The notes under the pieces are model-generated. The model was not told the origin of the DNA, ran no database searches, and worked only from the letters and a program-made list of their open reading frames with translations. The translations under genes and the position numbers were made by a program. Shown in pieces: positions 5,098-32,000 of a DNA stretch of 32,000 bases. Position 1 is the stretch's first letter; each line of letters begins with the position of its first letter. The stretch is taken from the NCBI GenBank assembly GCA_965247795.1, contig OZ252033.1, forward strand, positions 786,486 to 818,485, given 5' to 3'. Source of the stretch: Nitrospira sp. Lineage in GTDB: Bacteria; Nitrospirota; Nitrospiria; Nitrospirales; Nitrospiraceae.

Positions 5098-6825
5098 ATG
5101 AAAATGAGGCTGGGGCTTGGAATGGTAATAGCCTTCTGCGGATCACTATACGCCTCGACCGTGCAAGCGGACTTCCCCACGATCCCCAAGGAACTCTACA
5201 AGGCGCTCAACATCGAGCGGTCAGCTACGCCCAAGGAATTGTACGAGGCGGTGGTGAAACGATACCTGGATCCGGAGCAAGGCTTTGGGAAAGGGCAGTA
5301 CGCCGAGTTCTGGGAGCCAATCCCCTACAGCCAGTACCTTGACCCTGGGTCCTTCTACAAGCCGCCGCAGTCGGTTAAAGAGATCTCGACACGCGAAGAG
5401 TGCGTCGAGTGCCATACCGACGAGTCGCCCGGTTGGGTAATCGCGTGGAAGCAGAGCTCCCATGCCAATCTGCAGAAGATCCGCAACCTCACCCCGCGTG
5501 ATGACATCTATTACAAGAAAGCAAAGCTGGAGGCGATCGAGGAGAACCTGCGCTCGATGGGCAAACTCGGCAAGAATGAGAAATTGCAGGAAGTCAGCTG
5601 CATCGATTGCCACTTCTCCATCAATACCAAGAAGAAGGCCGACCACCGGAAAGACCTGCGCATGGGCACCGCCGATGTGTGCGGCACCTGTCACCTGCAG
5701 GAGTTTGCTGAACGGGAGTCCGAACGGGACACCCTCACCTGGCCGGCTGACCAGTGGCCCAAGGGCCGCCCGTCGCACGCGCTGGACTACAGGGCCAACG
5801 TCGAGGTGCAGGTGTATGCAGGGATGCCGGAACGCGAGATCGCCGAAGGCTGCACCGGGTGCCACATCAATCAGAACAAGTGCGACACCTGCCACGTTAG
5901 GCACGCATTCTCGGCGGCCGAGTCGCGTAAGTCTGAGGCCTGCGGGACCTGCCACAACGGGGCCGACCACAACAATTGGACAGCCTACAGCTTCTCACGG
6001 CACGGAATGAACTATCAGGCGGAGAAAGCAAATTGGAATTTTAACGTGCAACTCAAGGACGCTCTCGACAAGGGCGGGCAGACCTCGCCCAGCTGCCAGA
6101 CCTGTCACTTTGAGTACAATGGCAAGTTCGGCTCGCACAACCTGGTGCAAAAGGTGCGCTGGGCGAACTACCCCTTCGTGCCCGGCATCCGGGAAAACAT
6201 CTCCAGCGAGTGGTCCGAGCAGCGCCTGGATATGTGGGTCAAGACCTGCACCAATTGCCACTCCGAGACGTACGCCCGCGCCTGGCTGGACTGGATGGAC
6301 AAGGGCACCTTCGCGATGCTTGATAAATACGATGAGGTGCATAAGATAGTGAAGAAGCAGTTTGATGATGGCCTGCTCACAGGCCAGAAGACCAACCGCC
6401 CGAAGCCTCCGGCCCCGATCAAAGACGGGTTCGAGCAGTTCTTCCAGATCTTCTGGTCAAAGGACAACAACCCGGCTTCGATCGAGCTCAAGCTCTTTGA
6501 AATGGCTGAGGATCATATGGTGATGGGGCATGTGAGCCTCGCCCACGTCTACTGGGGTGGGTTTACCTACACCCAAGGCTGGGGGCCGATGAATCGAGCC
6601 TATGTCGAGATCATGGACGAGACCACGAAGCTCAAGGAGACGATGGCGCTGCAAGCACGGGTCGCCAAGCTCGAGCAGGGCCCCATGAGCAGCATGCTCG
6701 ACCTCATGAGCAGCCTTGACAGCACGGGTGCGAAGCTTTCGCTCGGAGGCTTGGGCGTCGGGATGCTACTGACCGGCACGCTCACGCTCGCCGGGTGGCG
6801 GAAGCGCAAAAGGAACGCTCGTTGA
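5098..6825 (+). CDS. haoA: Hydroxylamine dehydrogenase/oxidoreductase, octaheme subunit HaoA
   Basis: Signal peptide plus eight CxxCH motifs (CVECH, CIDCH, CGTCH, CTGCH, CDTCH, CGTCH, CQTCH, CTNCH). It is colinear with my recollection of Nitrosomonas europaea HAO, including [19 protein letters not shown] (cross-linking Tyr position) and the C-terminal hydrophobic tail + WRKRK. Confidence 0.97.
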
Positions 6826-9350: not shown

Positions 9351-9697
9351 GTCTCACCCGTGAGAAGATCTCCCCAGCAGTGCCGTGCTGGAGGCCTCGC
9401 GTGAGCGGTGCGTCCTTCAGGGGAGGCACACGACCACCGGAACCCCTACTCGAAACATATCGACAAGGGCCGCATCTCGGAGGCGGCAGAGATCGGCAGC
9501 AAGTCGCTCCCCGCGCTAGTACTGGGTAGCTAGGTTTTTCCCATCAACTTCGGAGCCGGCCTATCCGATCTCACATGACTGCACCGTGACGGGTTTGGTT
9601 GGTGGGGCGAGGGCCCTTCGTCGACCGTCCACGAATCGCACAGCCGCCTGAACCCGGTTCATCGGTCGTGTCCAGAATGTGAGGGGTCTGGACCGCA

Positions 9698-10420
9698 TCA
9701 CCCACCAGCCCCCTGTAGCCTCGCGGAGGTACTGGCTGTCGTCCCGGTGGCCGCCCGCCGTCCTAAGCGCTCCCGCCATCTGACCGAAAGGGCCGGACAG
9801 GCGGCAAGCGCACGCGCTGCCTCCACGTCGTGCGTGCGGTGGTGCATCACGTCGTTCGCGGCGGCCACAGTCCACTCGGGGTGCGGCCGCTTGGTCAACA
9901 GCAGTTTCGCTCCCGCCTGGACGTGGCCCTGTCGCAGTACTCGAAAATACCAGCCCGTGCGGCCGCTTTGCTGGACCCTGAGGGCCAAGTCCTTCATCCG
10001 CCACCGCCGTGCCAGCTTCCAGCATGGCTGTCGGGGCTGGGACAGTTGGACTAGCGCGTGGCTGATCTCGAACACATCGCCGATGCATACATCAGCCTCC
10101 AGCAGCCCCTCGGTGGTGAAGTTCTCACCGAATGCTCCGCAGGGCAGGGCTGCCAGGCCAAGATTTCGCTCCCAATACGGGTAGTGCTCGGCCGGGTAGA
10201 CGTTCACCGCCTTCTCAGGCCCCCCGTGGTTCTGCAGGTCGGCTTGGCTGTCCCCGGCGAGATTGACGCGCCCTAGTCGAACCGAGCCGGCAACCGGCTC
10301 TTTGAAGAAGCCGGTTGTCCAGATCTGATCCATCGGATCGGTTGTGTCAGCCCGCCCGACTGTCCGTGGGACCCCGATCTGCACCGAGAGGAGTTCGGCT
10401 TCGACTACGACCTCACCCAC
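9698..10420 (-). CDS. MOSC domain-containing protein (YiiM-like)
   Basis: YiiM/MOSC-type pattern: GD.QADL..HGG..KAV..YP.EHY..W, GENFT..GL.E..VCIGD, L.QLSQPRQPCWKLARRW, SGRTGWYFRVL..G.V. The start is set at GTG 10420, 6 nt after AGGAGG; the ORF-track start 10444 is less likely. Confidence 0.85.
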   Translation of the reverse strand: MGEVVVEAELLSVQIGVPRTVGRADTTDPMDQIWTTGFFKEPVAGSVRLGRVNLAGDSQADLQNHGGPEKAVNVYPAEHYPYWERNLGLAALPCGAFGENFTTEGLLEADVCIGDVFEISHALVQLSQPRQPCWKLARRWRMKDLALRVQQSGRTGWYFRVLRQGHVQAGAKLLLTKRPHPEWTVAAANDVMHHRTHDVEAARALAACPALSVRWRERLGRRAATGTTASTSARLQGAGG

Positions 10421-10514
10421 TGGTATCCTCCTCTGCCGCCGCACCTGAATAATCGGCCCGCGATCTTGTACTCAGGGTACACCTTCTTGCTGTTGAGTTG
10501 AAGGGGAAATCCGG

Positions 10515-19320: not shown

Positions 19321-19908
19321 TCAATTTTGTGCAGGACTCGATTTCTGCTCACGCGGGACCCGGTAGAACGCGAAAAACACGATCACCCCTATACTGGTAA
19401 CTGCTGCGAGCACACCTATGATGTTGAGCCAGGGCCATTTCGGTTCCCCCACGGAGAATGGGAATCGCGAGACATGCGCTTGCTCGTCGCCCACCGTGAC
19501 CAGACCGACGAACTTGCCGGGCTTGTCAAAGGTGTATTCGAAGTCGACCGAACCGGCGGGGTAGACCTTGGGCGGGATGTGTAAGATCGTGATGGCCGCA
19601 AGATCCTGCTCCGAGCCCGTATCCCTGATTATCCGAACCTCGGTGGGCAAAGAGCGGAGTTCATATTCGAGATAATCGAGCACCACCACCGTGTAGCCGA
19701 TCGCCGGAATGTCCTCGCAGAATTGCGTCTCTTGCGTTTGTCGAGGCTGATAGCCGGTGAAGTGCATGTTGTAGGGTCCGATCTTGAGTATGCACAAGTC
19801 CTCTGCCATGGACAGTCCTCCATGAGCCTGAATCTGTGCGGGGTATAGGATTCCGATCGCCAACAACACGCACCAGCACAGCGCTTTCAGATCTTGGAAA
19901 GAGTGCAT
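19321..19908 (-). CDS. AmoD/AmoE (PmoD-family) periplasmic copper protein with a C-terminal TM anchor, paralog 1
   Basis: Signal peptide ending IQA|HGG and a conserved block HG...MAED.C.........HF..YQP......Q.C.DIP..G shared with the neighbouring paralog. It has a single C-terminal TM helix and a GGAGAAAGGA Shine-Dalgarno. It lies second in transcription order, the position of amoD in AOB amoCABED operons. Confidence 0.7.
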   Translation of the reverse strand: MHSFQDLKALCWCVLLAIGILYPAQIQAHGGLSMAEDLCILKIGPYNMHFTGYQPRQTQETQFCEDIPAIGYTVVVLDYLEYELRSLPTEVRIIRDTGSEQDLAAITILHIPPKVYPAGSVDFEYTFDKPGKFVGLVTVGDEQAHVSRFPFSVGEPKWPWLNIIGVLAAVTSIGVIVFFAFYRVPREQKSSPAQN

Positions 19909-19989: not shown

Positions 19990-20562
19990 CTACGAACGGA
20001 TGGAAGACCACCACCTTCGCACTCGCTTCGATTTCTGGAGTTCATACACAAGCAAGGCCAGCAGCAGCAGTCCGATCACTGGCCCTGTCGCGGAACGCAC
20101 AAACTGCGAATAGCTAGGCGTCTGTACCCGCAACTGGTAGTGCAATGGGCTCAGCCCTACCGGCGTGATGATTAACCTATACAGGCCCTTGTCTAGCCTG
20201 GCTTCGCCCTTGACCACCCCGTCCGGGTGGGAGATCGGACGCCAGAATGCCACCGTCTGCTCTTCTTCTGTCTCGGTGAGTCCCCTCACGACCCGCATAC
20301 TGACTGGCATGGAGCGTAGCTCCCGGTCCACCAGGTCCACGACCAGGAAGGTGTCACCCTCCCCGGGAATGTCCGTGCAGTATTGAGCTTTCGGCTCGTA
20401 TTGAGGCTGGTAGGCGCTGAAATGCACCATGGCCCCACCTACCCTACGCATGCAAGGGTCTTCTGCCATTGCCACGCGCCCATGCCCTGCAGCTGCGCCG
20501 GGGTACAGTACTGCGATAAGGATGAGAATCGTAGCGCCTGCCTGTGTCACTTGCCTAATCAT
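19990..20562 (-). CDS. AmoD/AmoE (PmoD-family) periplasmic copper protein with a C-terminal TM anchor, paralog 2
   Basis: Signal peptide ending AAG|HGR, the same conserved block as paralog 1 (C-x7-M-x-H spacing here) and a C-terminal TM helix followed by basic residues. Confidence 0.7.
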   Translation of the reverse strand: MIRQVTQAGATILILIAVLYPGAAAGHGRVAMAEDPCMRRVGGAMVHFSAYQPQYEPKAQYCTDIPGEGDTFLVVDLVDRELRSMPVSMRVVRGLTETEEEQTVAFWRPISHPDGVVKGEARLDKGLYRLIITPVGLSPLHYQLRVQTPSYSQFVRSATGPVIGLLLLALLVYELQKSKRVRRWWSSIRS

Positions 20563-20703: not shown

Positions 20704-21100
20704 GGAGCTAAGTATTTATCATTCTTAAGCCAACTTTTTCAAGTATGTCCGCGTCGCGAGTGTGAGCGTCTGGTCCGTAAGACGAACGCCGAGCGGCGCG
20801 CATGCGGAATCACCTGCTGGAGGCAATTCGTAGCCATGTTGTACTGTCAGCGTAGACGCGCCCATGTCCTGCACGAGAAGATATACGGAGGGCTGACCAG
20901 TTGTGAGGACAAGCTGAACCACGTGGGCATTCAGGCGGCTAAACGCTCTAGCCTAGCCTATGCGAACGAACAATGGCCCTAGTGGCTCGATGCGCAGCGC
21001 TTCTACCAACTCCTTCAACGGTGCCAAGTCGGAGTCCCCCTTCCCCAGAAGTTCCGGTAAAAGAATATTCTCGATCGTTGACGCGCGTCAGAAAAGACCT
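20704..21100 (+). mobile_element. IS4/IS5-superfamily transposase N-terminal remnant (DUF4372-type N-terminus); pseudogene
   Basis: My + strand translation reads QLFQVCPRRECERLVRKTNAERRACGITCWRQFVAMLYCQRRRAHVLHEKIYGGLTSCEDKLNHVGIQAAKRSSLAYANEQWP*WLDAQRFYQLLQRCQ...KFR*KNILDR*. This follows the family pattern FSQL...PR.EF...V.K...ER....F.CW.QF.AM...QL....SLR.I..GL.....KL.H.GI......STLA.ANE.R.W. There is no start codon, three in-frame stops occur, and the DDE domain is absent. Confidence 0.6.
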
Positions 21101-21139
21101 CCTGATGAGGGCTGTTGTGAGCACAGTGCACGGTGGGGA

Positions 21140-21650
21140 CATTGCGTGTCCTGACAGGTTCTCCAGGAATCAGGAGAAGGCGATGCCGGATGGGCTTCGA
21201 GCGAGATGAACTTGCCTCTGATGCCATAAAGATACCCTGACCTATACCAGCACTCGTGGTGATGGGCGATGAGGATCGACGCTCCCTAAAGAAAGAACAG
21301 AGTTCGAGCAGAGTCGCTCCTAGCCGGGAATGGTTCTGAATGGCGACGTAGTACTCAGGCTCAGGGGAGTCTCTGCTCTCGACGAGATGGGGCGGGAGCA
21401 TCAAGAGCCCGATATCGTGAAGCCAGGCGGCGAACTCGAGGTCATGCATCTCATCGACATCGTGCGCCATATGCCTGCCCGATCATGAGCGCTATGGTGG
21501 CGGTTCGCCGCCCATGACCTGCATACCAAGGGAGCGCGCGGTCGATCTCTTTGCTGACCTGGCGGACGAGGATGGGTTCGACGTCGCGGCGTGAGGACAG
21601 CGGGAGAAGGAGGTGGTCGATCTTCTGGAGCAAACCGTGAACTCTCTAGA
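21140..21650 (-). pseudogene. HD-GYP domain (c-di-GMP phosphodiesterase-type) gene remnant, frameshifted and 3'-truncated
   Basis: Three pieces lie in different - strand frames. These are ...ALPWYAGHGRRTATIALMIGQAYG (HD start), then DEMHDLEFAAWLHDIGLLMLPPHLV...HSRLGATLL (HDIG), then HHHECWYRSGYLYGIRGKFISLEA (the HHHERWDGSGYP.GL.G..IPL.A motif). The remnant ends against the IS4-like remnant. Confidence 0.55.
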
Positions 21651-21707
21651 TGCCTGGTTTGATCTCATTATGGGGTATCGACGTGCATACGACATCCTTC
21701 AAGAACA

Positions 21708-21794: not shown

Positions 21795-22313
21795 TCAGGA
21801 TTCTTCTTCCCGTTTTCCAGGCCTCAAGGGCTGATTCAGTACCCACATTTCATAGAGCGGTACACTCAGCATGACCAGGAAGCTCAGGGTCATTAAGATG
21901 TCCCCAGTCAGCATCGTGACCACAAAGATGGGTGAGACATAGCTAATCAGCCACGGTGAGAGAAGATCGAGGATCACGCCGCCGAATCCTGCCCAGGTCA
22001 TCGCCGCTTTGAGCCCATGGCTGGCGCTTGTGAGATACATGACATGGATCAAGATCATGAAGATGACCGGCATAGTGAAGAGGTGAAAATGGGTGATTTC
22101 TGCCAGTTCGCGAAAGGACATGGGTTCGCCGAAGGTTGCGTCGGACCCGCGGTAGTGCTCGGCAATACCCTGTGGTGAGAGGCTGGTCATGCTATGCGCC
22201 CAAAAGAAGGAAAAGGTAAAGCCTGCCAGCATCAAGAGTAAAAACATTGTGTACAACAACCGAATGTGGCGATCCGAGTCGCGCAGTTTGAATCGCTGAT
22301 TAAAGTTTCGCAT
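21795..22313 (-). CDS. Hypothetical 4-TM membrane protein with conserved-looking His residues (HYRG loop; THFHLF and LIHVMY in TM2)
   Basis: An ORF with four clear hydrophobic helices, lying 24 nt downstream of the FMN-binding protein gene on the same strand. I recognise no family. Confidence 0.6.
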   Translation of the reverse strand: MRNFNQRFKLRDSDRHIRLLYTMFLLLMLAGFTFSFFWAHSMTSLSPQGIAEHYRGSDATFGEPMSFRELAEITHFHLFTMPVIFMILIHVMYLTSASHGLKAAMTWAGFGGVILDLLSPWLISYVSPIFVVTMLTGDILMTLSFLVMLSVPLYEMWVLNQPLRPGKREEES

Positions 22314-22337
22314 GATAGGACGCTCGGTCCGCTTCAG

Positions 22338-23021
22338 CTAGTTTCCAAAAATGGACGTAAAGAAGCCCTTCTCTGATTTGCGGACAGGGACGGTGTTGCT
22401 GCCGATTCCGGCTGGCTTCAAATAGAACTCATCGATGAGCACCAACACGCGTTTAATTCCTGCGCTCATGGAGCGAACCGACATCGTCGCCCCGCTGATA
22501 TTGATGATGTCTTTATTAATGCGGATGGGATCGTACACCGTCTTGCCTTCATACTGTACGTTGAAGCGCTTTCTGCCGACTTCGCTTCCTCTGGCCTCGC
22601 GAAAGACGAGTAGTTCGACGTTGGAACACGCGCCCGTGGCATCCACGCCGACCATGTAGGTCATGTGTTTATGTTTGCCGATCGTGTTGTGCACCATGGC
22701 ATAGCCGTCGACTTTGTCGCCGGTTTCACCAATGTACAGTTCGAAAGTCTCTTCGGGGAACTTCCAGCCGATGCGCTGCTCGATCACGTCCTTCTTTTCC
22801 TGGCTCAAGCGAATGACTTCTTTGCGGACACGTTGTGACGTGGGTAGGGTGAGCTTCACCGTGGCCTCTTCGGTCATGAACACTTCCGCGTGGTTCATCT
22901 CGTCCTTGGAAAGATACCGCTGAAGTTCGCTATCCCAGATACGGTCCGCCGCGGACAGTTCCGTTGACAGTACAAGCCCGATTAAGAGCAGACTCGAGAC
23001 GAATTTTACGCGAGTGAACAT
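22338..23021 (-). CDS. Periplasmic FMN-binding domain protein (NqrC/RnfG/NosR-N-type) with a covalent flavinylation motif
   Basis: Signal peptide (LSTELSA|AD). The FMN_bind pattern runs G...DGYAMV......G....M.YMVGVD..G....VE.L.F.E..G... and ends in DIINISGATMSVRSMSAGIKRVL. The SGAT codons lie at 22485-22496. Confidence 0.85.
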   Translation of the reverse strand: MFTRVKFVSSLLLIGLVLSTELSAADRIWDSELQRYLSKDEMNHAEVFMTEEATVKLTLPTSQRVRKEVIRLSQEKKDVIEQRIGWKFPEETFELYIGETGDKVDGYAMVHNTIGKHKHMTYMVGVDATGACSNVELLVFREARGSEVGRKRFNVQYEGKTVYDPIRINKDIINISGATMSVRSMSAGIKRVLVLIDEFYLKPAGIGSNTVPVRKSEKGFFTSIFGN

Positions 23022-23467
23022 CCGTGCTCCTCCAGTTTAGCCCCCAGGCGAGTTTGTACGTCACGCATCACCTCCTCAGAGGGATCGGTCGAGGCCCAAT
23101 CAAAGAGTCGTGATCCCCCGACGAAGGCCCAGCGCTGCCGTTGCTCACCAACGCTGATTTTGGTGACGTCATCCAGCCGTTTCACGGTGAGGGTAATACG
23201 AGACCGATCTTTGCTGTCCTCCGACAACTCGCGTTGCAGGACACCGTAGGTCCGTCCCGGCATCGGAATTTCTAGCCAGGTGGTCACGATGAGACCAGCA
23301 TCCCGGTCCTTGGTGGAGATCGACCGGTCATTCACGGACTCGAGGGCAGCCTCCCACGCATGGTCGTAACTGCAGACGGCAAATCGCTGTTGCATGCCGC
23401 TCATGGAGGTGCAGGCATTCAGGAGGAGGGGTGTGATACACAACATTATTAAACAACCGAAACGCAT
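23006..23467 (-). CDS. Lipoprotein, BamC/NlpB-like helix-grip pattern (function unknown)
   Basis: The start is set at ATG 23467 (MRFGCLIMLCITPLLLNAC, lipobox LLNAC). The segment HAWEAALESVNDRSISTKDRDAGLIVTTW resembles the BamC-type motif. The gene overlaps the downstream gene by 16 nt. Confidence 0.65.
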   Translation of the reverse strand: MRFGCLIMLCITPLLLNACTSMSGMQQRFAVCSYDHAWEAALESVNDRSISTKDRDAGLIVTTWLEIPMPGRTYGVLQRELSEDSKDRSRITLTVKRLDDVTKISVGEQRQRWAFVGGSRLFDWASTDPSEEVMRDVQTRLGAKLEEHGCSLA

Positions 23468-23533
23468 TGCCAAGAATTCCTCTTCCCCTTGTTCTCTCCT
23501 CACCATCAGGGCGAGGAGAGGACAATTGAACTT

Positions 23534-24970
23534 CTAGAAGTACGTCGCCGCCTGCACCAGGAATCCATTGCCATTGATGGGGCTTCCGCTGGATCCAAGA
23601 TCTGCAGAAGCGACAAGGCCCGTCGCATTTTTCTGGGTATTGAACTGCCAGTCAAACTTCAACACGGTGTCTTCAATCGGTCTGAAGTTGATACCGAGCG
23701 TCAGGCGTTCCAACTCCCGACGATTCCCTCCCCCGGCAAGACCACGGGTACGGTCGTCGGTATCCGTGTCCACTTGCCCCCAGCGCACGACGGCAGTGAA
23801 AGTCGAGGCATCAGAGAAATGACTCGGGGCCAGGTTCTTGAGGAACTCAGGCATGAAGTGATAATTTCCTTGTAGGTAATAGCCTTGCATGCCTGCGGGG
23901 CCAGTCCCATTGTTGCTAATTCTCGACCAGGCCGCTTCTCCAATGATCTCAAAGGGGCCGCGCTGGAACGTCCAATCTACCGCAAAAATGTCAAGGTAGC
24001 TGCTGCCCATAGTGGCCGTCGCATTCCGGTACAGTCCGTGGTAGGCCGACCCGGCCACTTCAATGCCCAACCTGGGGCTGAAGGCGACCCGACCGACGAC
24101 GGCTTTACTATCATTGCGGTCCCGGGACACGCTTCCGCGCGCGCTGCGTACGCCTAAATCCGTGATATCGCCGGCCGTTGAGCTCACGCCGTTGACGGCG
24201 TAGATTTCATAGTCGAGTTTTGAAAGAGCGGTTGGGTAGAGGGTGCCGTAGAGGCCGGCGCCCGATTCGAACCAGGTGCTGGGGATGATGACCCGGGACA
24301 CCATGGGCCGATCGACCAGATCGTTGAGCGGAGAATCGTGGAGTAAGTTAAACTTGCCGACTGGCATCAGGAGGATACCGGCGCGCAAGTTGATCGGCTC
24401 GGTAATCAGATAGTCCAATTGAGCGAACTCGATTTTGATGGAGCCATCTCCACTCTCTGGGGCATCCGTCCCCCCCCGCTCGATCTCAATTTCGGTGGCG
24501 AACTTCACGCGGTTGGTAATAGCCGCATAGATAAAGGGCACCAGTCTCTGCTGTCCGAATGACTGGCGGCTTGGATTGTCCAGGTTTCGGCGAGACAGGT
24601 GGTTGTACATCACGTCGACATAGCCACCGAGTGTGGCTTTTGGCGCGCTCAAGAACGGCTTGGCGTAGATCAGTTTTCCAGACCCGGTCGTGCCGAATCC
24701 GAGGGGGATGCGTTCCTCACCCTTCCGTTCGACTGAAATGTCCTTCATATCGCCAGTCGGGGTCGGGTATTGGACGGCGTCCGGCTGACCTTCTTGCTGT
24801 TCCATGGTTCGCTCCATAGAGCGCTCGCGCCGCTCAAGCTCCTGCATCCGCTTGTTGACTGCCTCGTCGACTAGCTTCTTAATGTCCTCCGGGGTCATGT
24901 TTTCCGCCAAAACTGGCATAACCGACAAACTGGCGATCACGAGAACCCCGAGGATTGACTGGATCTTCAT
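23534..24970 (-). CDS. Outer-membrane beta-barrel protein (porin-like) with an N-terminal coiled-coil segment
   Basis: The start is set at ATG 24970, after GGAGG. The signal peptide ends PVLA|EN, followed by a charged helical stretch (EDIKKLVDEAVNKRMQELERRERSMERTMEQQ). Alternating amphipathic beta pattern follows, ending ...LVQAATYF (terminal aromatic OMP signature). Confidence 0.7.
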   Translation of the reverse strand: MKIQSILGVLVIASLSVMPVLAENMTPEDIKKLVDEAVNKRMQELERRERSMERTMEQQEGQPDAVQYPTPTGDMKDISVERKGEERIPLGFGTTGSGKLIYAKPFLSAPKATLGGYVDVMYNHLSRRNLDNPSRQSFGQQRLVPFIYAAITNRVKFATEIEIERGGTDAPESGDGSIKIEFAQLDYLITEPINLRAGILLMPVGKFNLLHDSPLNDLVDRPMVSRVIIPSTWFESGAGLYGTLYPTALSKLDYEIYAVNGVSSTAGDITDLGVRSARGSVSRDRNDSKAVVGRVAFSPRLGIEVAGSAYHGLYRNATATMGSSYLDIFAVDWTFQRGPFEIIGEAAWSRISNNGTGPAGMQGYYLQGNYHFMPEFLKNLAPSHFSDASTFTAVVRWGQVDTDTDDRTRGLAGGGNRRELERLTLGINFRPIEDTVLKFDWQFNTQKNATGLVASADLGSSGSPINGNGFLVQAATYF

Positions 24971-25322
24971 CGGTAACCTCCGTGGTGAGTACGGGTGTGG
25001 TCTGACTCGGGACTCGGTGGTCTCTGGTCTCGTAGTGCAGGTGCAATTCGGATAAAATGACTGAGTTGCGATCCGGGATAGACCTCCTTTCATGAATCGA
25101 TCCATGATGCGACACGGCTCCATCCTTCAAGAGCGGAGAAAGGGATCATGACAATAGCGTTTGCAGCGCGTGCACTTGAGTTCAAACCCTTCCCCAACGA
25201 CTTTGGCGATCAATTGCCCACACTCGCCTCGAGGTTCACTGCGTTGGCTGCAACCCGACTGGCTGGATTTTGAGGCGACCAAAGTGGCGTCGGAGTTGCG
25301 ACGGACAGCCTTGCAAATGAAA

Positions 25323-25350
25323 TTGAGAACGATTATTAATATCTTATATT
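25323..25350 (+). promoter_or_regulatory. Sigma70 promoter candidate for the lipoprotein-apbE operon
   Basis: TTGAGA (25323-25328), a 16-nt spacer and TATATT (25345-25350) lie in the AT-rich divergent intergenic region. Confidence 0.45.
25325..25343. promoter_or_regulatory. Fur-box-like operator overlapping the promoter
   Basis: gagaacgattattaatatc matches the 19-bp Fur consensus GATAATGATAATCATTATC at 14 of 19 positions (my count). It spans the -35 hexamer and the spacer. Confidence 0.35.
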
Positions 25351-25441
25351 ATTATATGGATCTATTGTCAAGAGGGCTGTTCCTGACTTGATAAAAGATG
25401 GGTCGAGTGCATTCCAGAACACAGTACCCTATAATTTCCCC

Positions 25442-26062
25442 ATGGTGAGAGCCAGTAACACGCATGTCTGGTTGGGAAGTGTCATCGGAGGACTTGCCTT
25501 GAGTCTGTGGGGGTGTGCAGCGGACCTTCCCCCAATGGTAGAGGACACTCAAGTTGCCGAAGGCGTGGTGGTGGGGAGGGCCCTGGCGGTCCTTACTGGT
25601 GAAACGCGCCGGTGGTATGAACCGGAAATACGGTTTTTCGAGTTTGAAGATCTACAGACTCACGAGCGTTTCAAAGTGGAGATGAAGTCCGATGATCGAT
25701 ACTTTGTGGTCGCGCTGCTGTCTGGAGAATATCGGCTCAACAGGGTACAAATCAGTGAGGGGCCGTTCATGTCCATGGCGCAACTGGCCATGGATTTTTC
25801 AGTCAGGAATAGTCCCGTCACCTATCTGGGCACATGGCGCTTTGGAGTAGACTCGCCGCGCTATGGACGGATGGTCGTTGTGTCGATGATGCTTGATCAA
25901 GGCGAGACGGAGCAGGCGCTTGAGTTTCTCACGAAACGGTATCCCTCTATCGGCAAGCCGACTATGGTAGAAATGCTCCCGCAACCGTCCCAAATGGAAG
26001 CTCGGTTATACGAAGTCATGCCCTATCCACGTTACAAGTACTTTCGTCGACATCACTGGTAG
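25442..26062 (+). CDS. Hypothetical lipoprotein
   Basis: The start is set at ATG 25442 (MVRASNTHVWLGSVIGGLALSLWGC, lipobox-like LWGC). The ORF-track start at 25388 is a TTG and adds 18 non-signal residues. I recognise no family. Confidence 0.6.
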   Translation: MVRASNTHVWLGSVIGGLALSLWGCAADLPPMVEDTQVAEGVVVGRALAVLTGETRRWYEPEIRFFEFEDLQTHERFKVEMKSDDRYFVVALLSGEYRLNRVQISEGPFMSMAQLAMDFSVRNSPVTYLGTWRFGVDSPRYGRMVVVSMMLDQGETEQALEFLTKRYPSIGKPTMVEMLPQPSQMEARLYEVMPYPRYKYFRRHHW

Positions 26063-26077
26063 GGATCAGCGACAGTC

Positions 26078-27103
26078 ATGAACTCACGAAGCTCGCAGTC
26101 AACTCTTGTCACCGCGATTAGTCTACTCGTTGCGCTTCTGGCTGGCTGTGTGGGTGTGCAATCCGGCCCTAAGCCTGTTGTCGTCAAGCGAACCCAGCTG
26201 CACATGGGGACGCTCGTTTCAATTATGGTGGTGGCCTCGACCGAGGCCATCGTACAGTCGGCGATCACGGCTGGATTCGCTGAAATCAAACGGTTGGAGC
26301 AGTTGCTCAGTACCTGGATTCCAACGAGCGAATTGTCCAGGGTCAATCTCGCTGCGGGACAGCAGCCTGTGGGCGTGAGCCGAGAGACGTTGGAACTCGT
26401 CAGCCGATCATTGGAGATGGCGAAAATCACAGAGGGTGGGTTCAACATTGCCGTCGGTCCAGCCGTGGAAGCCTGGAGTGTCACCGAGCAGCGGCGAATT
26501 CCAAGCGCGGGCGAGCTTGACCGGCTACGCCCTCTAGTCGACTGGACGGCAATTCAGTTTGATATGGCGGCGGGAACGATCTTTCTTCCAAAGTCAGGCA
26601 TGCGCATTGATATCGATGGAATCGGGAAGGGCTATGCGGCCGACATGGTCGTCGAGATTCTCCGGAAAGAAGGTGCGCGCGGAGGAGTTGTGGCGCTCTC
26701 CGGTGACATTAGGACCTTCGGTGACTTGCCCGGTATGACAGGGTTCCCGGTAGGGATTCGACATCCGCGGCGGGAGGGTGCGCTAGTGGCGACGATTGAC
26801 CTCCGGAATGAAGCCATCTCGACGGCCGGCGATTATGAGCGCTACTTTGAAGAGGGCGGGATTCGTTATCATCACATCCTCGATCCGATTTCGTTAGCGC
26901 CGGCGCGCAAATGCCAGAGCGTAACGGTGATCGCCAAGGAGGGGACGGTGGCAGATGGTCTCGACACCGGGATTTTCGTTCTGGGCCCTGAGAGAGGCAT
27001 GGCGTTGGTCGAGCGACTGCCAGATATAGAGGCGGTTATCATTGATGACCAAGGGAAGGTGATGGTGTCGTCAGGGCTTCGGCCTCGATTGCGTTACCCA
27101 TGA
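26078..27103 (+). CDS. apbE: FAD:protein FMN transferase ApbE (lipoprotein)
   Basis: Lipobox LLAGC. ApbE hallmarks are present: HMGT.VSI, SEL.R.N, AVGP..E.W, IDIDGIGKGYAAD, AISTAGDYERYFE..G.RYHHILDP, VTVIA...T.ADGLDT..FVLG. Confidence 0.93.
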   Translation: MNSRSSQSTLVTAISLLVALLAGCVGVQSGPKPVVVKRTQLHMGTLVSIMVVASTEAIVQSAITAGFAEIKRLEQLLSTWIPTSELSRVNLAAGQQPVGVSRETLELVSRSLEMAKITEGGFNIAVGPAVEAWSVTEQRRIPSAGELDRLRPLVDWTAIQFDMAAGTIFLPKSGMRIDIDGIGKGYAADMVVEILRKEGARGGVVALSGDIRTFGDLPGMTGFPVGIRHPRREGALVATIDLRNEAISTAGDYERYFEEGGIRYHHILDPISLAPARKCQSVTVIAKEGTVADGLDTGIFVLGPERGMALVERLPDIEAVIIDDQGKVMVSSGLRPRLRYP

Positions 27104-27182
27104 GACAGAGGGTTCTCGTGCGAGGGTGCTCATGTACCTGCATGGATTGAGTATGGGTGGATGAATCTCCCGCAATTGTCTC

Positions 27183-27503
27183 GTGCTGGCATTTGGAGTG
27201 TGTGCCTGCAGCGAATTCGAAACAAGGTATTTTCAAGACAAGGTCAACCAAGTTACGCAAGGAGCTGTGGCACGTCGGTATGGGGACCCACACAAGCTCG
27301 ACAAGTTGCCGGATGGGCGGTCAGTCTGGACCTACTTCGATCGGGGGAGTGGCACGAGTGGCTATAGCGGCTATGCGCGCGCGTCCTACTGTCGGGCCTA
27401 TGTCATGACGTTTGATCAGGCCGAGGTGCTACAGGATTGGAAGCAGCAGGATTGTGCGACTCGTCCCGCGACAATTACTGAACCGTTTTTAAATCGTAAA
27501 TGA
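27183..27503 (+). CDS. Small hypothetical protein, possibly a BamE/SmpA-like lipoprotein (start uncertain)
   Basis: A GTG-initiated ORF. The segment AVARRYGDPHKLDKLPDGRSVWTYFD resembles the SmpA/OmlA pattern. The hydrophobic N-terminus LAFGVCAC is too short for a normal signal peptide because an in-frame TGA at 27162 blocks extension. The 3' end overlaps tonB convergently by 29 nt. Confidence 0.35.
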   Translation: MLAFGVCACSEFETRYFQDKVNQVTQGAVARRYGDPHKLDKLPDGRSVWTYFDRGSGTSGYSGYARASYCRAYVMTFDQAEVLQDWKQQDCATRPATITEPFLNRK

Positions 27504-28602
27504 TCGAAAACTTCACCGGTATCTGGGGGCGTGCCAACGGACGAGAGAGCTTGATGGGCGGTCCTTTTTTTACATCTTCTACGGCGACTTGATCGAGCAT
27601 CGTGTTGCCGGAACTCTTGCCCACGCGCACGTCTCTCACCACTCCATCCTCGTGGAGCAACGCCATCAGCGTGACCTTCCCCTGAATCCCTTCAGATCGC
27701 AACATTGCAGGATAGCGTTTATCGAGATCCTCGATCCAATGCGCCATGAGCTCTGAGAGCCATCCGTAATCGACTTTGGCAGGCTTGGGTTGGCCAGCGG
27801 GAGTGAGAGCGGCCACTTGTGGCTCAGTCACGGGGGCTGGCGGCTGATGTACCGGTGTCTTACTGTGTGTGGCTGCCGAATCATCATGAACAGGGGGTAT
27901 TAGCTCAGTGAGCAGAGTCGATGTTCGCTGTGGAAGGGGCTCAAATGTTTGTGAAGGTACAGCCGGTGTAGCGGGTGTGGGATCGTGTGGGGGCGAGGCC
28001 ATAGGTGTATCAACCGCCTGGAGTGCAGTCGTCGTCTGAGCACGTTGCGACGATGTAACACTGGGAGGTGTAGGCGACGGGACTGGATCGGGCTGTTGTA
28101 TCACCTGGTCTGTCTTTGCGATGGGCGCAGGAGGAGAAGTTTGCTCACGAGCAGGTTGATGATCCGATTCTGGCTTTGATAAAATAGGTTGAGTGGGGGC
28201 GAGTTTTGCGATCGGTGGCGGTGGGGGCACTGGCTTTTCTACGACAGGAGCGACGGGAGCTGGGGGTGGGATTGCCGGTGTCTCAACTCTCGGTTGGGAA
28301 GGGTCTGCCACAGGATGAGCAGTCGCTGTGGGCGGATCGGACTGCTGGAGTGTCGGAGCCGGGACGGTTTTCACCCGAGCTGGCGATCCGGAGGCTTCAG
28401 GAGTCGAGGGAGCGGCTATCGGCGATGGCGTGACCATCGCCACTTGCCAAGTGAACGGTTCTGCTTGCGGAGCCAACTGCAGGTGCTGCACGAAGAGGAT
28501 GGCGGTGAAGGCCAGGCTGCCATGCAGCAGACAAGCCACAAGCCATCCTATTGCTCTTGGGCCAGTTCTATCGATGCGATGGGGAATTGAATCGATAATC
28601 AC
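27475..28602 (-). CDS. tonB: TonB-family energy transducer with a very long Pro-rich spacer
   Basis: N-terminal TM helix with His (WLVACLLHGSLAFTAILF), a roughly 200-residue P/T/A/Q-rich linker and a TonB C-terminal domain (YPAMLRSEGIQGKVTLMALLHEDGVVRDVRVGKSSGNTMLDQVAVEDVKK). The GTG start overlaps the exbD stop (GTGA). Confidence 0.85.
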   Translation of the reverse strand: MIIDSIPHRIDRTGPRAIGWLVACLLHGSLAFTAILFVQHLQLAPQAEPFTWQVAMVTPSPIAAPSTPEASGSPARVKTVPAPTLQQSDPPTATAHPVADPSQPRVETPAIPPPAPVAPVVEKPVPPPPPIAKLAPTQPILSKPESDHQPAREQTSPPAPIAKTDQVIQQPDPVPSPTPPSVTSSQRAQTTTALQAVDTPMASPPHDPTPATPAVPSQTFEPLPQRTSTLLTELIPPVHDDSAATHSKTPVHQPPAPVTEPQVAALTPAGQPKPAKVDYGWLSELMAHWIEDLDKRYPAMLRSEGIQGKVTLMALLHEDGVVRDVRVGKSSGNTMLDQVAVEDVKKGPPIKLSRPLARPQIPVKFSIIYDLKTVQ

Positions 28603-28973
28603 CGTCGAATGACCTCGAGACTGATTTGTTGAAATCCCAGGCCGTGAATTTCGTCAACCACAGCCACGAATTTCTCCAGCGACGTCACTTTATCTGCACG
28701 GACGACGACGGCTGACGCGCGAGGCTGCGTGGTGAGTGCTGACGGGAGACCACCTTCAGGGATCGGTTTGTCATTGAGAAACAGACCGCCCTTCGGCGTC
28801 AGTGTAATGACGATGGGCACATCTTTTCGATCGCCGACGGCCTTGGCCTTGGCCAAGTTCACGGGAATCTGGCCCGTGCTGATGAATGTGGCGGTGGTCA
28901 ACACGATGACGAGCAAGACCAGCATGACATCCACGAGCGGGATGACGTTGATCTGATCAATGTCCTGATCCAT
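28599..28973 (-). CDS. exbD: ExbD/TolR biopolymer transport protein
   Basis: INVIPLVDVMLVLLVIVL TM signature and a periplasmic domain of typical length. It sits between exbB and tonB. Confidence 0.9.
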   Translation of the reverse strand: MDQDIDQINVIPLVDVMLVLLVIVLTTATFISTGQIPVNLAKAKAVGDRKDVPIVITLTPKGGLFLNDKPIPEGGLPSALTTQPRASAVVVRADKVTSLEKFVAVVDEIHGLGFQQISLEVIRR

Positions 28974-29388
28974 GCTGCGCCTTGTATTGGGTCAGGAGTT
29001 CGGTCACGCGACGACGAAGCACGTTGTTCATGACGACACAGGGAATGGCCACCAGAAGGCCGACGACCGTGGCCTTCAATGCCAGGCTCAAGCCGATCAT
29101 GATGGTGTTGACGCCCATCGTGCCAGACGTGCCCATCGTATGAAACGTCAACATGATACCAAGGACGGTCCCCAGGAGGCCAATGTAGGGAGCGTTGACG
29201 GCCACGGTTCCGATGATGACGAGACGTTTGGTGAGGGTGATTTCCAGCAGCAGCACATTGGAGAACTGAGATAGCTTCACCCGCCGGAAGAAGAACCAGC
29301 GTTCGACTGCGACAGCCACCGACCACAGGCTCATGGCCAGTAAGAGCCCGATTATTCCGTAATCTATGGCGTGCTGCAACGAGTCCAT
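28957..29388 (-). CDS. exbB: ExbB (MotA/TolQ/ExbB proton-channel family, short form)
   Basis: Three TM helices with the APYIGLLGTVLGI and ALKATVVGLLVAIP motifs. AAGGAG Shine-Dalgarno upstream. Confidence 0.85.
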   Translation of the reverse strand: MDSLQHAIDYGIIGLLLAMSLWSVAVAVERWFFFRRVKLSQFSNVLLLEITLTKRLVIIGTVAVNAPYIGLLGTVLGIMLTFHTMGTSGTMGVNTIMIGLSLALKATVVGLLVAIPCVVMNNVLRRRVTELLTQYKAQHGSGH

Positions 29389-29511
29389 CGCGACTCCTTA
29401 TGGCCGGTAGGTGGGACCCGAACTGGCGGGGTGGGAGCTGTTACACTGGTCCATCAATGCCAGATTACGGGGAAGCCTGTCAATCAGCGTGCACATGGGG
29501 AGCACGCCCCT

Positions 29512-30636
29512 CTATCGGGACAGTTGGTCAGCTCGAAAGAGCACGGTATGCGTCGCGGAAACACGGAGTTCAACCGCTGTGCCGTCCTGGTAGACGCTGG
29601 TCGAGCTTTCGCTACTATGCACGATTTGGCCGGAAGGGAGCTGGACCGTATAGAGATTCTCCGAGCCCCGGAACTGCCGAGCCACGATCCGAGATCCGGT
29701 CGACTTGATCGGCATGAGGTGAACATCGTCAGGGCGGATCATCACGACCACCGGGGCCCCCTCTTCACTGCTCAGTGTGTTAGGAAACTCCCCCAGTTCA
29801 GTGTGGACCATGCCCTGTTGGATCCGCCCAGTAATAAAGTCGGCCTGCCCGACGAAGTCGGCGACGAATGGAGTCGAGGGGACGTGGTAGATCATCTCCG
29901 GCGAATCCATCTGTTCAAGCACACCTTGGTTTAACACGGCGATCCGGTCAGCCATGGCAAAGGCTTCGTCGTGATCGTGTGTGACCAAGATGGTCGTCGT
30001 TTTCATCCGGCGCAAGAGCGCATGGAGTTCATGCCGCATGCGACCGGCCATATCAGGGTCAAGATTGCTGAATGGTTCATCCAGCAAGAGCATGACCGGA
30101 TTCTGCACCAATGCCCGTGAGAGCGCCACACGCTGCTGCTGTCCGCCGGACAATTCATGCGGGTAGCGCCGCTCGAATCCTTCCAGGCCGGTGAGTCGCA
30201 GCATCTCTTGGACCTGACATTTCCTCTCAGCCCGTGACAGGTGGCGGAGTCCAAAAGCAATATTGTCCGCGACGTGCAGATGGGGGAACAGGGCGTATTC
30301 TTGGAAGACCATGCCGACGCGCCGTTCTTCAGTTGGAATTGTTTTGGAGGAAGAAGAGACGCGTCGGCCTGACAGAAAAATCTCTCCGGACTGCACCGGC
30401 TCGAAGCCCGCGATCGCCCGCAGAATGGTGGTCTTACCGCAGCCAGATGGGCCGAGCAGACAGAGAATTTCCCCTTCTTGTACCGAAAATGAAATATCAC
30501 GGATAGCCAAACGGTGTGGATCGTAGGCACACGACACCGAGCGAAGTTCCAAGATTGAAGACTCCGGCGTGTAGAGATTGACCTGACCTTGGAGCCGGTC
30601 AGTTTCCACGGGGGTCATGTGTGATTCTATGGCCAT
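29512..30636 (-). CDS. ABC transporter ATP-binding protein, Fe(3+)/polyamine importer type with a C-terminal TOBE-like domain (FbpC-like)
   Basis: Walker A GPSGCGKTT, Q-loop, signature LSGGQQQRVALSRAL, Walker B MLLLDEPFSNLD, H-loop VTHD and a ~130-aa C-terminal extension. The start is taken at ATG 30636, 9 nt after the permease stop; TTG 30660 is the ORF-track alternative. Confidence 0.9.
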   Translation of the reverse strand: MAIESHMTPVETDRLQGQVNLYTPESSILELRSVSCAYDPHRLAIRDISFSVQEGEILCLLGPSGCGKTTILRAIAGFEPVQSGEIFLSGRRVSSSSKTIPTEERRVGMVFQEYALFPHLHVADNIAFGLRHLSRAERKCQVQEMLRLTGLEGFERRYPHELSGGQQQRVALSRALVQNPVMLLLDEPFSNLDPDMAGRMRHELHALLRRMKTTTILVTHDHDEAFAMADRIAVLNQGVLEQMDSPEMIYHVPSTPFVADFVGQADFITGRIQQGMVHTELGEFPNTLSSEEGAPVVVMIRPDDVHLMPIKSTGSRIVARQFRGSENLYTVQLPSGQIVHSSESSTSVYQDGTAVELRVSATHTVLFRADQLSR

Positions 30637-30644
30637 CGGTGTTC

Positions 30645-32000
30645 CTACGCTGCTCGCCAATCGCGTGAGAGCAACAGCACCATCGGCGGCAAGCCCACAA
30701 GCACGATGAGCAGCGCGGACGGAGCTGCCAGTTGGTAGTATTCTTCACTCGCTTCCAGCCAGACACGGACCGCAAGTGTGTCAAACCCCACCGGTCGCAG
30801 GAGTAGCGTTGCCGGGAGTTCCTTCATCGTCTGCAGAAACATCAGGACCCAGGCGACGATAAATCCATTGCGGATGAGTGGCAGTGTCACGCGCCGCCAG
30901 GTTTCCTGAACCCCAAGCCCTAGTGTGCGGCCCACTTCTTCAAGATTGGGCGTGACTTGCTGCAGCGCTGGTTCAAGTGATTGGAGCCCGGCAGGGAGAA
31001 AGTGCAGCACGTAGGCAACGATCAACACGATCGCGGTGCCATAGAAAAACGGCATCAGTTTGAGAAAGAGGACCAATACGGCGAGTGCCGCCACTGGTCC
31101 CGGAAGCACATAGCCGGCATAGGCGACCTGTAAACAGCCGATACTGAGCCATGTCGGTTTCCGGCTCGCGAGATAGGCCAGCGGGAGGCCAATCAGCACT
31201 CCTGCGGTGGCGGCGAGGGACGACAGCAACGCGCTGTTCCACATAAAACCGAAGAAGCGAGCATCCAGAATCGCTTGAGCCTCAGGGGACAGGCTCCACT
31301 GAATGAGCAGATAAGCTGGGACGCCGAAGGCCGCACCAACGATGGCAGCAAGATACGCAGTGAATACCGCGGTCTTGAGCCATCCACATTGGATTCGTTG
31401 CGGCACGCGGTAGCGCCCCGTTATCTGATAGAACCGGCTCTTGTGGCGGAACCATCGCTCGGCTATTAAGAAAACCAAGGCAAGGACCACCAGCAAGATA
31501 CTGAGGATACTCGCAGCCGTGTTGTCAGACCGTCCGGTTAATTGCTGAAACACCGCGTAGGTCATCGTTTGGTAGCGCAACAGAGAGACGGCGCCGAAAT
31601 CGGATACGACGTACAGTATCACCAGTGCGACACCGGCGACGATGGATGGGCGCAGCAGCGGCAGGGTCACGCGCCACATCGTTTGGATGTGCGAGACGCC
31701 ACACGTACGGGCCATTTCCTCAAACGACACGTTTACACTTAAGAGTGCACTACGAGTGAGAAGATATACAAAGGGAAAGGTGTCGAGCGCCATCACGAGG
31801 GTCGCGCCCCAGAAGCCTTGGGGCGAGAAGATTCTGGCCTGGGGCCCTGCGACCGTCTGCCAGAGGTGCTCGACCGGTCCACCGAATCCCAAGAGATAGT
31901 TATAGACATAGGCCAACACGTAGGTCGGCATGGCCAGCGGCAGCACAAGGGCTATTTCCCAGAGCCAGCGCCCGCGAAAATCGAAGCGCGTTACCATCGA
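30645..32000 (-). CDS. Fused two-domain ABC importer permease, iron(III)-type (FbpB-like); the N-terminus lies outside the window
   Basis: More than 450 aa are visible, with two tandem MetI-like permease modules (two EAA-type loops: EEMARTCGVS... and EEVGRTLGLG...). The frame is open to the window edge, and the first visible residues correspond to an internal region of such permeases. Confidence 0.85.
   Translation of the reverse strand, partial: SMVTRFDFRGRWLWEIALVLPLAMPTYVLAYVYNYLLGFGGPVEHLWQTVAGPQARIFSPQGFWGATLVMALDTFPFVYLLTRSALLSVNVSFEEMARTCGVSHIQTMWRVTLPLLRPSIVAGVALVILYVVSDFGAVSLLRYQTMTYAVFQQLTGRSDNTAASILSILLVVLALVFLIAERWFRHKSRFYQITGRYRVPQRIQCGWLKTAVFTAYLAAIVGAAFGVPAYLLIQWSLSPEAQAILDARFFGFMWNSALLSSLAATAGVLIGLPLAYLASRKPTWLSIGCLQVAYAGYVLPGPVAALAVLVLFLKLMPFFYGTAIVLIVAYVLHFLPAGLQSLEPALQQVTPNLEEVGRTLGLGVQETWRRVTLPLIRNGFIVAWVLMFLQTMKELPATLLLRPVGFDTLAVRVWLEASEEYYQLAAPSALLIVLVGLPPMVLLLSRDWRAA

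Follow-up and report, generated by a model that had tools for sequence, protein, structure and literature searches.

We analysed a gene cluster that fills the right-hand third of a 32,000-nucleotide stretch of DNA from a comammox Nitrospira (contig OZ252033.1 of assembly GCA_965247795.1; hereafter the window, with all positions counted from its first letter). The cluster combines an outer-membrane porin, a secreted flavin mononucleotide (FMN)-binding protein, the flavin transferase ApbE and a small inner-membrane protein of the Aq_1264_TM family with genes for TonB, ExbB, ExbD and an ATP-binding cassette (ABC) importer. Our preferred reading, held at a little less than even confidence, is that this region encodes an envelope module that is controlled by Fur and acquires iron by reducing it. 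We also consider it plausible, if not quite probable, that Aq_1264_TM represents a new and widespread class of inner-membrane partner for ApbE-flavinylated proteins, which together with the flavoprotein and a dedicated porin would form a self-contained, Fur-regulated, Fe(III)-reducing uptake pathway without siderophore receptors in at least six phyla, and in which an invariant His-x-His pair (HxH) would be a new quinol-to-flavin or iron-handling site. An earlier note, made from the DNA sequence alone, had hypothesised a ferric-reduction or electron-shuttling step here, and open reading frame (ORF) calls combined with domain scans recovered every component that it had listed where it had placed it.

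The flavoprotein gene (22338–23021, reverse strand) encodes a secreted, RnfG-like protein of 227 amino acids with an N-terminal, cleavable-looking signal peptide. Profile searches for the two domain families named by the earlier note, FMN_bind and ApbE, both returned matches. The FMN_bind domain scored 27.2 bits in Pfam against a gathering cut-off of 22 (E 6e-6), and the nearest solved relative of the protein in a profile search of the PDB was RnfG (9eri_G, E 1.7e-13). The SGAT flavinylation motif had been placed correctly at 22485–22496 and corresponds to residues 176–179; G177, T179 and S181 are invariant in eight distant homologues from the module, with Ser, Thr or Ala at the first motif position. 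The transferase is encoded at 26078–27103 (forward strand) as a lipoprotein (lipobox LAGC) whose Pfam ApbE match (E 1e-80) covers model positions 1–266, and it scored 147 bits (E 5e-43) with the NCBIfam equivalog model of Escherichia coli ApbE, under the cut-off of 498 bits. The flavinylation chemistry of ApbE is established on NqrC and RnfG. From these sequence features, we consider it reasonably secure that the flavoprotein is an extracytosolic ApbE substrate, with FMN predicted to be covalently attached to Thr179.

This flavoprotein lies outside the known complexes, since it scored only 23 and 19 bits with the RnfG family models of NCBIfam (cut-offs 205 and 102) and has no Rnf or Nqr neighbours. 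Consistent with the earlier note's statement that no such partner accompanies the cluster, none was found in 80 Nitrospira loci, in seven distant loci or among the 25 commonest families of the neighbourhood scan described below. The C-terminal tail of the protein (22338–22400), ending in G-[FW]-F-x-x-[IL]-F-G-N, is common to Nitrospira and the lineage of one distant locus, L085 (48% identity; L085:8930–8998), and is lacking in other flavoprotein homologues; it may be a docking peptide.

A gap of 24 nucleotides separates the flavoprotein gene from the gene for the inner-membrane protein (21795–22313, reverse strand), which encodes 172 amino acids with four transmembrane helices. The family identification that the earlier note had left to be made is Pfam PF27139 (Aq_1264_TM), a placement that rests on the precomputed annotation of homologues, all of which, from 98% down to 23% identity, carry PF27139; the protein itself matched no family at E ≤0.1 in a local Pfam copy without the PF27139 model, and no NCBIfam model. 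The family is named after a hypothetical protein of Aquifex, our literature search for Aq_1264_TM or aq_1264 returned nothing, and an exhaustive search yielded 500 family clusters at 50% identity. In the AlphaFold2 model (mean predicted local distance difference test score, pLDDT, 92.8), helices span residues 15–43, 67–93, 99–125 and 128–157, with a short helix in the first loop. As the earlier note had described, histidines sit in and beside the second transmembrane helix: H75 and H77 at its start, H90 within it and H99 just past it.

Conservation among 215 non-Nitrospira representatives was highest at H75 (100%), H77 (about 100%) and G56 (99%), followed by F24 (92%), K102 (89%), Y54 (88%), W157 (87%), H90 (82%) and E155 and M156 (80% each); E72 is present in 75% of members, and residues 53–56 form a Y/H53-Y54-R55-G56 loop motif. 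Members without H90 often carry a histidine at position 53, in the periplasmic loop. We considered H90 and M156 as a His/Met heme pair and rejected it, since these two residues vary independently and H90 instead covaries with F76, the phenylalanine between the invariant histidines. The charge distribution of the protein places its N-terminus in the cytoplasm. Three homologues from independent family clusters (P0191, P0248 and P0269) are natural fusions of an N-terminal Aq_1264_TM domain to a C-terminal ApbE domain, with linkers that retain a lipoprotein-type signal or lipobox as a fifth transmembrane helix; this architecture puts the C-terminus of the family proteins in the cytoplasm. Because the charge distribution and the ApbE fusions agree, the Y/H-Y-R-G loop and the HxH pair face the periplasm.

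The membrane partners described for flavinylated proteins are NapH-like, MsrQ-like, PepSY-like, DsbD and Nqr/Rnf-like proteins (PMC8238504) and DUF4405/FezC (PMC11334425). The 172-residue protein resembled none of NapH-like (PF12801), MsrQ-like (PF01794), PepSY-like (PF03929/PF16357), DsbD (PF02683), NqrB/RnfD-like or DUF4405 (PF14358) proteins in sequence or fold, and it had no PDB relative by profile search (best E 0.4) or Foldseek (best E 0.77, template modelling score <0.45). Since no sequence, profile or fold match was obtained, the Aq_1264_TM protein is none of these described partners.

We assessed the breadth of the module beyond Nitrospira with seven distant look-ups (Binatia, Archangium, Methylomirabilota, Omnitrophica and three further lineages) and 80 diverse metagenome loci, the latter mostly without taxonomic labels. 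All seven distant contexts had FMN_bind and ApbE genes beside the family member. Five of them (L082–L085 and L087) had a homologue of the window's porin (E 1e-26 to 4e-89), and the remaining two had a weakly Porin_O_P-like or unannotated gene at the same place. All 42 metagenome loci that extended 1 kb or more in both directions had an FMN_bind or ApbE gene adjacent to the family member; where at least 4 kb was available on both sides, FMN_bind and porin genes lay within 4 kb in 14 of 14 loci and ApbE in 6 of 14. Since the flavoprotein and porin were always near and ApbE was near in fewer than half, the core consists of the porin, the RnfG-like flavoprotein and Aq_1264_TM, with ApbE usually but not always encoded locally. 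The cluster is thus kept across Nitrospira, its core of porin, FMN_bind, Aq_1264_TM and ApbE genes is kept in other phyla, and the module occurs in at least six phyla, that is, Nitrospirota and at least five others. That the genes are merely unrelated neighbours, with the partner complex of the flavoprotein encoded elsewhere, has practically no chance of being right, being refuted by adjacency in at least six phyla and in all 42 metagenome loci, by overlapping starts and stops and by the gene fusions. It is reasonably secure that the four core genes act together.

Neighbourhood enrichment was assessed in one pooled Pfam scan of 111 flanking ORFs from 23 dereplicated metagenome loci, in which no dominant extra partner appeared. 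Because of this, we regard TonB, the ABC importer, FTR1 and the like as lineage-specific additions rather than as core members. Individual loci carried further genes. In L083 (Archangium; 4198–5685) and L085 (4623–6227), a homologue of GT-C/PMT-like membrane glycosyltransferases (PMT_2, TMEM260_N) lies just upstream of the porin gene in the same operon. In L086 (7387–8980) and L088 (7385–8978), the membrane-protein gene is directly preceded by a NusG_II gene and a fused ECF-transporter/Hpre_diP_synt_I/CbiQ gene, which are similar to the ECF components for flavin trafficking in the Listeria electron-transfer locus; in both loci, Rrf2 regulators stand between FMN_bind and ApbE.

These neighbourhoods bear on whether Aq_1264_TM serves flavinylation itself, by exporting FAD for ApbE or anchoring ApbE in the membrane, and stands outside any redox chain. 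To our knowledge, the route by which FAD reaches periplasmic ApbE is not settled for most Gram-negative bacteria, which leaves room for such a helper. The fusion to ApbE in three independent family clusters fits this role, as does the abutting or overlapping of the gene with apbE in many loci (for example L082, L084 and L087), and a flavin could stack on the conserved aromatic residues. However, the gene tracks the flavoprotein and porin (14 of 14) more than ApbE (6 of 14), and neither Rnf nor Nqr was among the 25 commonest neighbourhood families. Furthermore, the ECF-type genes of L086 and L088, kin to the Listeria flavin-trafficking system, would make a second flavin exporter redundant in those loci (PMC9973259). 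On balance, we give a dedicated flavinylation helper a slim chance.

The intergenic region between the two divergent operons contains a candidate element for iron control. Of all sites in the window, the 19-mer GAGAACGATTATTAATATC at 25325–25343 comes closest to the E. coli Fur consensus, agreeing with it at 15 of 19 positions. The element overlaps a forward-strand, sigma-70-like promoter (25323–25352; TTGAGA, a spacer of 16–18 nucleotides, TATATT/TATTAT; 10 of 12 matches, by consensus only), in line with the earlier note's placing of the ApbE gene behind a Fur-box-like promoter, and it lies between the porin operon and the lipoprotein–ApbE operon. The 19-mer was exact in 44 of 55 measurable Nitrospira intergenic regions, across which the flanking proteins have diverged to 45–75% identity, and nearly all measured Nitrospira loci had no other Fur-consensus match that equalled or bettered it. 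Fur-box-like sites with at least 14 of 19 matches also directly precede the module operon in L082, L083, L086, L098, L120, L122 (16 of 19) and L145. The G+C content is 48% in L086 and 65–71% in the other six. In L083, from Archangium, the site is in the divergent promoter of ApbE and the porin operon, as in Nitrospira. It is reasonably secure, judging from these cis-elements, that expression of the module is under a Fur-family box.

Iron genes recur around the module. A Fur gene is near it in L082, L085, L086, L087, L098, L120, L122 and L145. A cytochrome c–FTR1 fusion lies directly upstream of the flavoprotein gene in L082, L093, L098, L103 and L120, and the L122 cluster contains one as well. 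P19 is encoded twice in L085, and FeoAB is encoded in L086. Genes for ferritin, Bfd or HemP are found in L082, L084, L085, L122, L125, L128 and L158, and L085 and L087 carry an ABC importer of the Nitrospira type. Thus, the linked transporter outside Nitrospira is variable (FTR1, P19, Feo or ABC) or absent. Taken together, the conserved Fur-box-like element, the adjacent Fur gene and the recurrent iron genes support iron control of the module, as far as gene content and cis-elements can indicate it.

The same links could be read in the opposite direction, with the module oxidising Fe(II) to feed Fe(III) importers of the FTR1 or FbpA type, or with some other target, as a general periplasmic or extracellular outlet for flavin electrons. 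FTR1–cytochrome c fusions and P19 belong to systems that couple transport to a change in the redox state of iron, CCP_MauG-like and cupredoxin genes are near the module in L082 and L084, and many loci have no iron gene in their flanks. Nevertheless, by established redox chemistry FMN is a poor oxidant of Fe(II) at neutral pH, Nitrospira habitats are oxic, so that Fe(II) is scarce, and the Fur-box-like sites upstream of the module in several phyla tie it to iron supply. Protein-bound FMN is a low-potential couple that suits reduction of Fe(III) chelates and not oxidation of Fe(II). Because of this low potential, we favour Fe(III) reduction over Fe(II) oxidation. We regard the reverse direction or another target as rather improbable.

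In Nitrospira, the best 80 of 445 matches in a genome-collection scan (L001–L080) were all from this genus, and the order ABC permease, ATPase, ExbB, ExbD, TonB, small ORF, ApbE, lipoprotein, porin, lipoprotein, FMN_bind, membrane protein was kept. The FMN_bind gene adjoins the membrane-protein gene in 75 of the 80 loci, and three of the five exceptions end at a contig edge. This gene order is common to comammox organisms and canonical nitrite oxidisers, with N. lenta (L058 and L060) having the module equally, and amo or cop genes adjoin the cluster in some loci only, in one orientation or the other. The earlier note had pointed to heme demand for the hydroxylamine oxidoreductase (HAO) and its cytochromes; to name this demand as the reason for the module is speculation. 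In one locus, L078 (Nitrospira sp. RSF48; 9471–10513), the 19-mer is present at 9682, ApbE is followed immediately by the membrane-protein gene, and porin, lipoprotein and FMN_bind genes are absent; this is a natural deletion variant or a rearrangement.

The porin gene (23534–24970, reverse strand) is part of an ORF that reaches 25123, but its true start is M52 at 24970, giving a probable OprO/OprP-type outer-membrane porin of 478 amino acids that is identical to the called protein P0388. The window's porin itself had no local Pfam match; most of its listed homologues carry PF07396 (Porin_O_P) and are named porins. The protein has a signal peptide, an N-terminal coiled-coil helix and a C-terminal Phe. 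Its AlphaFold2 model has 16 strands, and its best folds are OprO and OprP at a template modelling score of ~0.4, although confidence in the model is low (mean pLDDT 50.7, shallow alignment). A sheath of the MtrB type was rejected on size (~16 strands, OprO/P-like). A second, diverged porin paralogue (42–49% identity) lies directly downstream of the membrane-protein gene in L010 (10894–12207), L015, L016, L020, L030, L055, L071 and L073; the window has none.

Lipoboxes and PF07396-bearing homologues agree with the earlier note's description of two lipoproteins and a porin-like outer-membrane protein in these operons. One lipoprotein gene (23006–23467, reverse strand; lipobox LNAC; ORF reaching 23506; a weak DUF3576 match only) overlaps the start of the FMN_bind gene by 16 nucleotides; it is conserved in Nitrospira and has a homologue in L085 (E 7e-14). 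The other (25388–26062, forward strand; lipobox LWGC; no family assigned by Pfam or NCBIfam scans) is the first gene of the ApbE operon and was present in about half of the Nitrospira loci. A small conserved ORF of 106 amino acids without a Pfam family match follows ApbE (27183–27503, forward strand) and was detected in roughly a third of these loci.

The remaining genes of the cluster, all on the reverse strand, encode the TonB system and an ABC importer. The reported tonB-exbB-exbD genes are present, encoding TonB with a Pro-rich spacer and a TonB_C domain (27475–28602), ExbD (28599–28973; Pfam E 2.7e-21) and an ExbB of the short exbB2 type with a MotA_ExbB domain (28957–29388; TIGR02805, 150.4 bits against a cut-off of 135.35). 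In agreement with the earlier note, no TonB-dependent receptor gene was found in the window, where the only ORF of more than 600 amino acids encodes the CopD–cytochrome c protein. TonB-ExbBD is thus a member of the cluster in Nitrospira and only a putative partner of the module. The ABC importer comprises an ATPase with ABC_tran and TOBE_2 domains (29512–30660; Pfam and NCBIfam) and a permease with two BPD_transp_1 domains (30645–32000) whose 5' end lies beyond the window. The earlier note had described a Fe(3+)-type ATPase with a fused permease. The importer stands, but ATPase and permease are separate, overlapping genes, the fused part being the two-domain permease, and homology does not bear out the Fe(III) label, as the best curated matches were PhnS2/T2/U2-like and below cut-off. 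The ferric model PRK11432 scored 260 bits against a cut-off of 496. Upstream of its ABC permease of 527 amino acids, the Nitrospira locus L012 carries genes for Fur (E 8e-35) and a periplasmic binding protein. A two-domain permease, a TOBE_2 ATPase and a binding protein of the SBP_bac_1/6/8/11 class would suit an Fe(III) importer of the FbpABC/AfuABC/FutABC type by architecture, but iron as the ABC substrate is suggested only by the adjacent Fur gene.

These observations would fit together as follows. During iron limitation, a Fur-family repressor would leave its box in the divergent promoter and both operons would be switched on. In the periplasm, the lipoprotein ApbE would join FMN covalently to Thr179, as the invariant G-x-T-x-S residues and the chemistry of ApbE on NqrC and RnfG suggest, and the porin would let small, probably anionic, ferric species into this compartment. 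The Aq_1264_TM protein would dock the flavoprotein and pass electrons to it from the quinol pool through its periplasm-facing HxH site. This is the weakest step; we propose the membrane protein as the quinol-to-flavin electron route because it is the only inner-membrane protein of the core. Reduced FMN would then reduce Fe(III), and the iron would pass to the transporter linked to the module in each lineage, probably the adjacent Fur-linked ABC importer in Nitrospira and an FTR1–cytochrome c protein, P19, FeoAB or an ABC importer elsewhere.

Several findings weigh against this scheme, most of them concerning the membrane protein. No redox cofactor could be assigned to it from fold or sequence, and the solved structures searched, which included FoxB (7ABW), CybB and Nqr/Rnf subunits, contained no relative. 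The two invariant histidines are two residues apart on one helix, and heme binding by them would require an oligomer interface; just 82% of family members have H90; and the HxH pair with E72, to which some members add H53, resembles a metal site as much as a heme site. Beyond the core, the neighbourhood is heterogeneous, iron genes were few among the 111 flanking ORFs (two FeoB and two TonB-dependent receptors), and the best curated matches of the ABC importer and its binding protein were all sub-cut-off and PhnS2/T2/U2-like. Thus, co-conservation, the Fur-box-like element, the iron genes and the absence of a known complex favour the ferric-reduction or electron-shuttling hypothesis of the earlier note, while its membrane step meets a protein without a recognisable cofactor fold and with only an invariant HxH.

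The metal-like character of this site raises the question of whether Aq_1264_TM instead handles iron within the same iron module, as a periplasm-facing Fe(II)/Fe(III) site or a small permease, with the electron donor of the flavoprotein encoded elsewhere. The invariant HxH pair at the periplasmic edge of the membrane, E72 in 75% of members and the Y/H53-Y54-R55-G56 loop would suit such a site, and H53 in members that lack H90 would give a cluster of three periplasmic histidines. Moreover, many loci consist of porin, flavoprotein and membrane protein only, with no transporter near, so that the lone inner-membrane protein could be the importer. However, four helices with few intramembrane polar residues make an unlikely permease, and Pfam, PDB profile and Foldseek searches found no likeness to known metal transporters. 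In addition, the linked FTR1, Feo and ABC transporters are complete and need no further permease, and the flavoprotein would be left without local electron input. We therefore consider an iron handler unlikely, although it is a genuine contender, and retain reductive iron acquisition through a quinol-to-flavin route as our working proposal.

The rest of the window (G+C content 52–63%) encodes amoCAB, copC, a copD–cytochrome c fusion, ccmF, a ccmG-like gene, ccmH, ccmI/cycH, a multiheme HAO, cytochrome c554 and a cytochrome of the NapC/NirT type. Between copC and the module, 19321–19908 and 19990–20562 (reverse strand) encode two paralogous secreted proteins of ~190 amino acids with a C-terminal transmembrane helix and no Pfam or NCBIfam match; in other comammox loci, three tandem copies lie beside copCD and amoCAB. 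The paralogues may be copper proteins similar to AmoD/AmoE. At 21015–21695 (reverse strand), three overlapping ORF fragments in different frames, the largest with a weak HD_5 match (E 5.7e-4), look like the remains of an HD-domain gene and separate the amo/cop island from the iron module. Two stretches, 4952–5050 upstream of the HAO gene and 20709–20748 downstream of a ~190-residue paralogue, are the only others in the window with at least 75% A+T, and neither matched the Fur consensus at a threshold of 13 of 19.

Nitrospira carry out most nitrite oxidation, as well as complete nitrification as comammox, in soils, waters and treatment plants. For these bacteria, the module suggests a way of taking up iron that does not depend on receptors; they need this nutrient in quantity for heme and iron-sulfur enzymes, and the conserved Fur-type box offers a direct handle for expression studies. 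More generally, it offers a simple system of three proteins for testing how electrons or iron move from one to another of the inner membrane, a flavin in the periplasm and the cell exterior. About half of bacteria carry out extracytosolic flavinylation, and its membrane partner has yet to be assigned in thousands of genomes (PMC8238504); the module adds a candidate partner family and, for the first time, a dedicated outer-membrane porin.

The link between flavinylation and iron assimilation is already known (PMC8238504), and the module of porin, flavoprotein and Aq_1264_TM is new as far as the literature consulted shows. Neither PMC8238504 nor PMC11334425 mentions a porin or the Aq_1264_TM family, and literature searches for Nitrospira with ApbE, or for a porin with FMN-binding protein and ApbE, gave nothing relevant. 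Supplementary file 1 of PMC8238504 lists, labelled OrganohalideReductase and without further remark, a cluster of Emcibacter_A sp002749135 (NVVY01000001.1_100-103) with ApbE, an OprO/P porin, FMN_bind and a 210-residue uncharacterised protein (K09939). This cluster seems to be a proteobacterial cousin of the module in which the small membrane protein is another one.

Iron reduction and assimilation have been connected with flavinylated systems whose partners are PepSY-like, MsrQ-like, P19 or DUF4405 proteins (PMC8238504, PMC11334425). In the PepSY-like (FoxB/VciB-type)–DUF2271–ApbE systems (PMC8238504), as in the module, ApbE, a flavinylated extracytosolic protein and a small, His-bearing inner-membrane protein are encoded together, with Fur control, links to iron transporters and TonB, and a proposed periplasmic ferric reduction. 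In contrast with those systems, the membrane protein of the module has no PepSY or PepSY_TM domain and no FoxB match, its flavoprotein is an RnfG-like FMN_bind protein rather than DUF2271, and a porin is part of the core. DUF4405/FezC and MsrQ-like cytochromes b (PMC11334425) are likewise small polytopic proteins whose histidines are the best-conserved residues and which are encoded with apbE. FezC is thought to form its heme sites by homodimerisation (PMC11334425), as a protein with HxH and H90 would also have to do. However, DUF4405 has four central histidines on six helices, whereas Aq_1264_TM has two invariant histidines on one helix and no DUF4405 or Ferric_reduct match at E ≤0.1.

The flavoprotein resembles RnfG and NqrC in aligning with RnfG over nearly its full length and in having the flavinylated Thr in an S/T-G-A/S-T motif, but it scores far under the RnfG cut-offs, has a cleavable-looking signal peptide and has no RnfA/C/D/E or NqrB/D/E/F partner in the cluster or the sampled neighbourhoods. 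In porin–cytochrome conduits of the MtrCAB type, as in the module, an outer-membrane beta-barrel, a redox protein of the periplasm and a partner in the inner membrane are encoded together. These conduits pair the 26-strand MtrB sheath with a multiheme cytochrome, in contrast with a probable OprO/P-type diffusion porin of 16 predicted strands and a single-flavin protein here; at that size, the barrel of the module would be too small to sheathe a protein as MtrB does. The flavin-based extracellular electron transfer system of Listeria (Ndh2, EetA/EetB, PplA and FmnB; Light et al. 2018 as cited in PMC8238504) runs, like the proposed module, from quinol through small membrane proteins without an assigned cofactor to an ApbE-flavinylated FMN_bind lipoprotein and on to extracytosolic Fe(III). 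It differs in being Gram-positive, with no outer-membrane part and with unrelated membrane proteins, and in being respiratory rather than Fur-controlled and assimilatory. By analogy, the role of electron route that EetA/EetB, FoxB, MsrQ and the DUF4405 cytochromes fill elsewhere is the one that we propose Aq_1264_TM may fill in this module.

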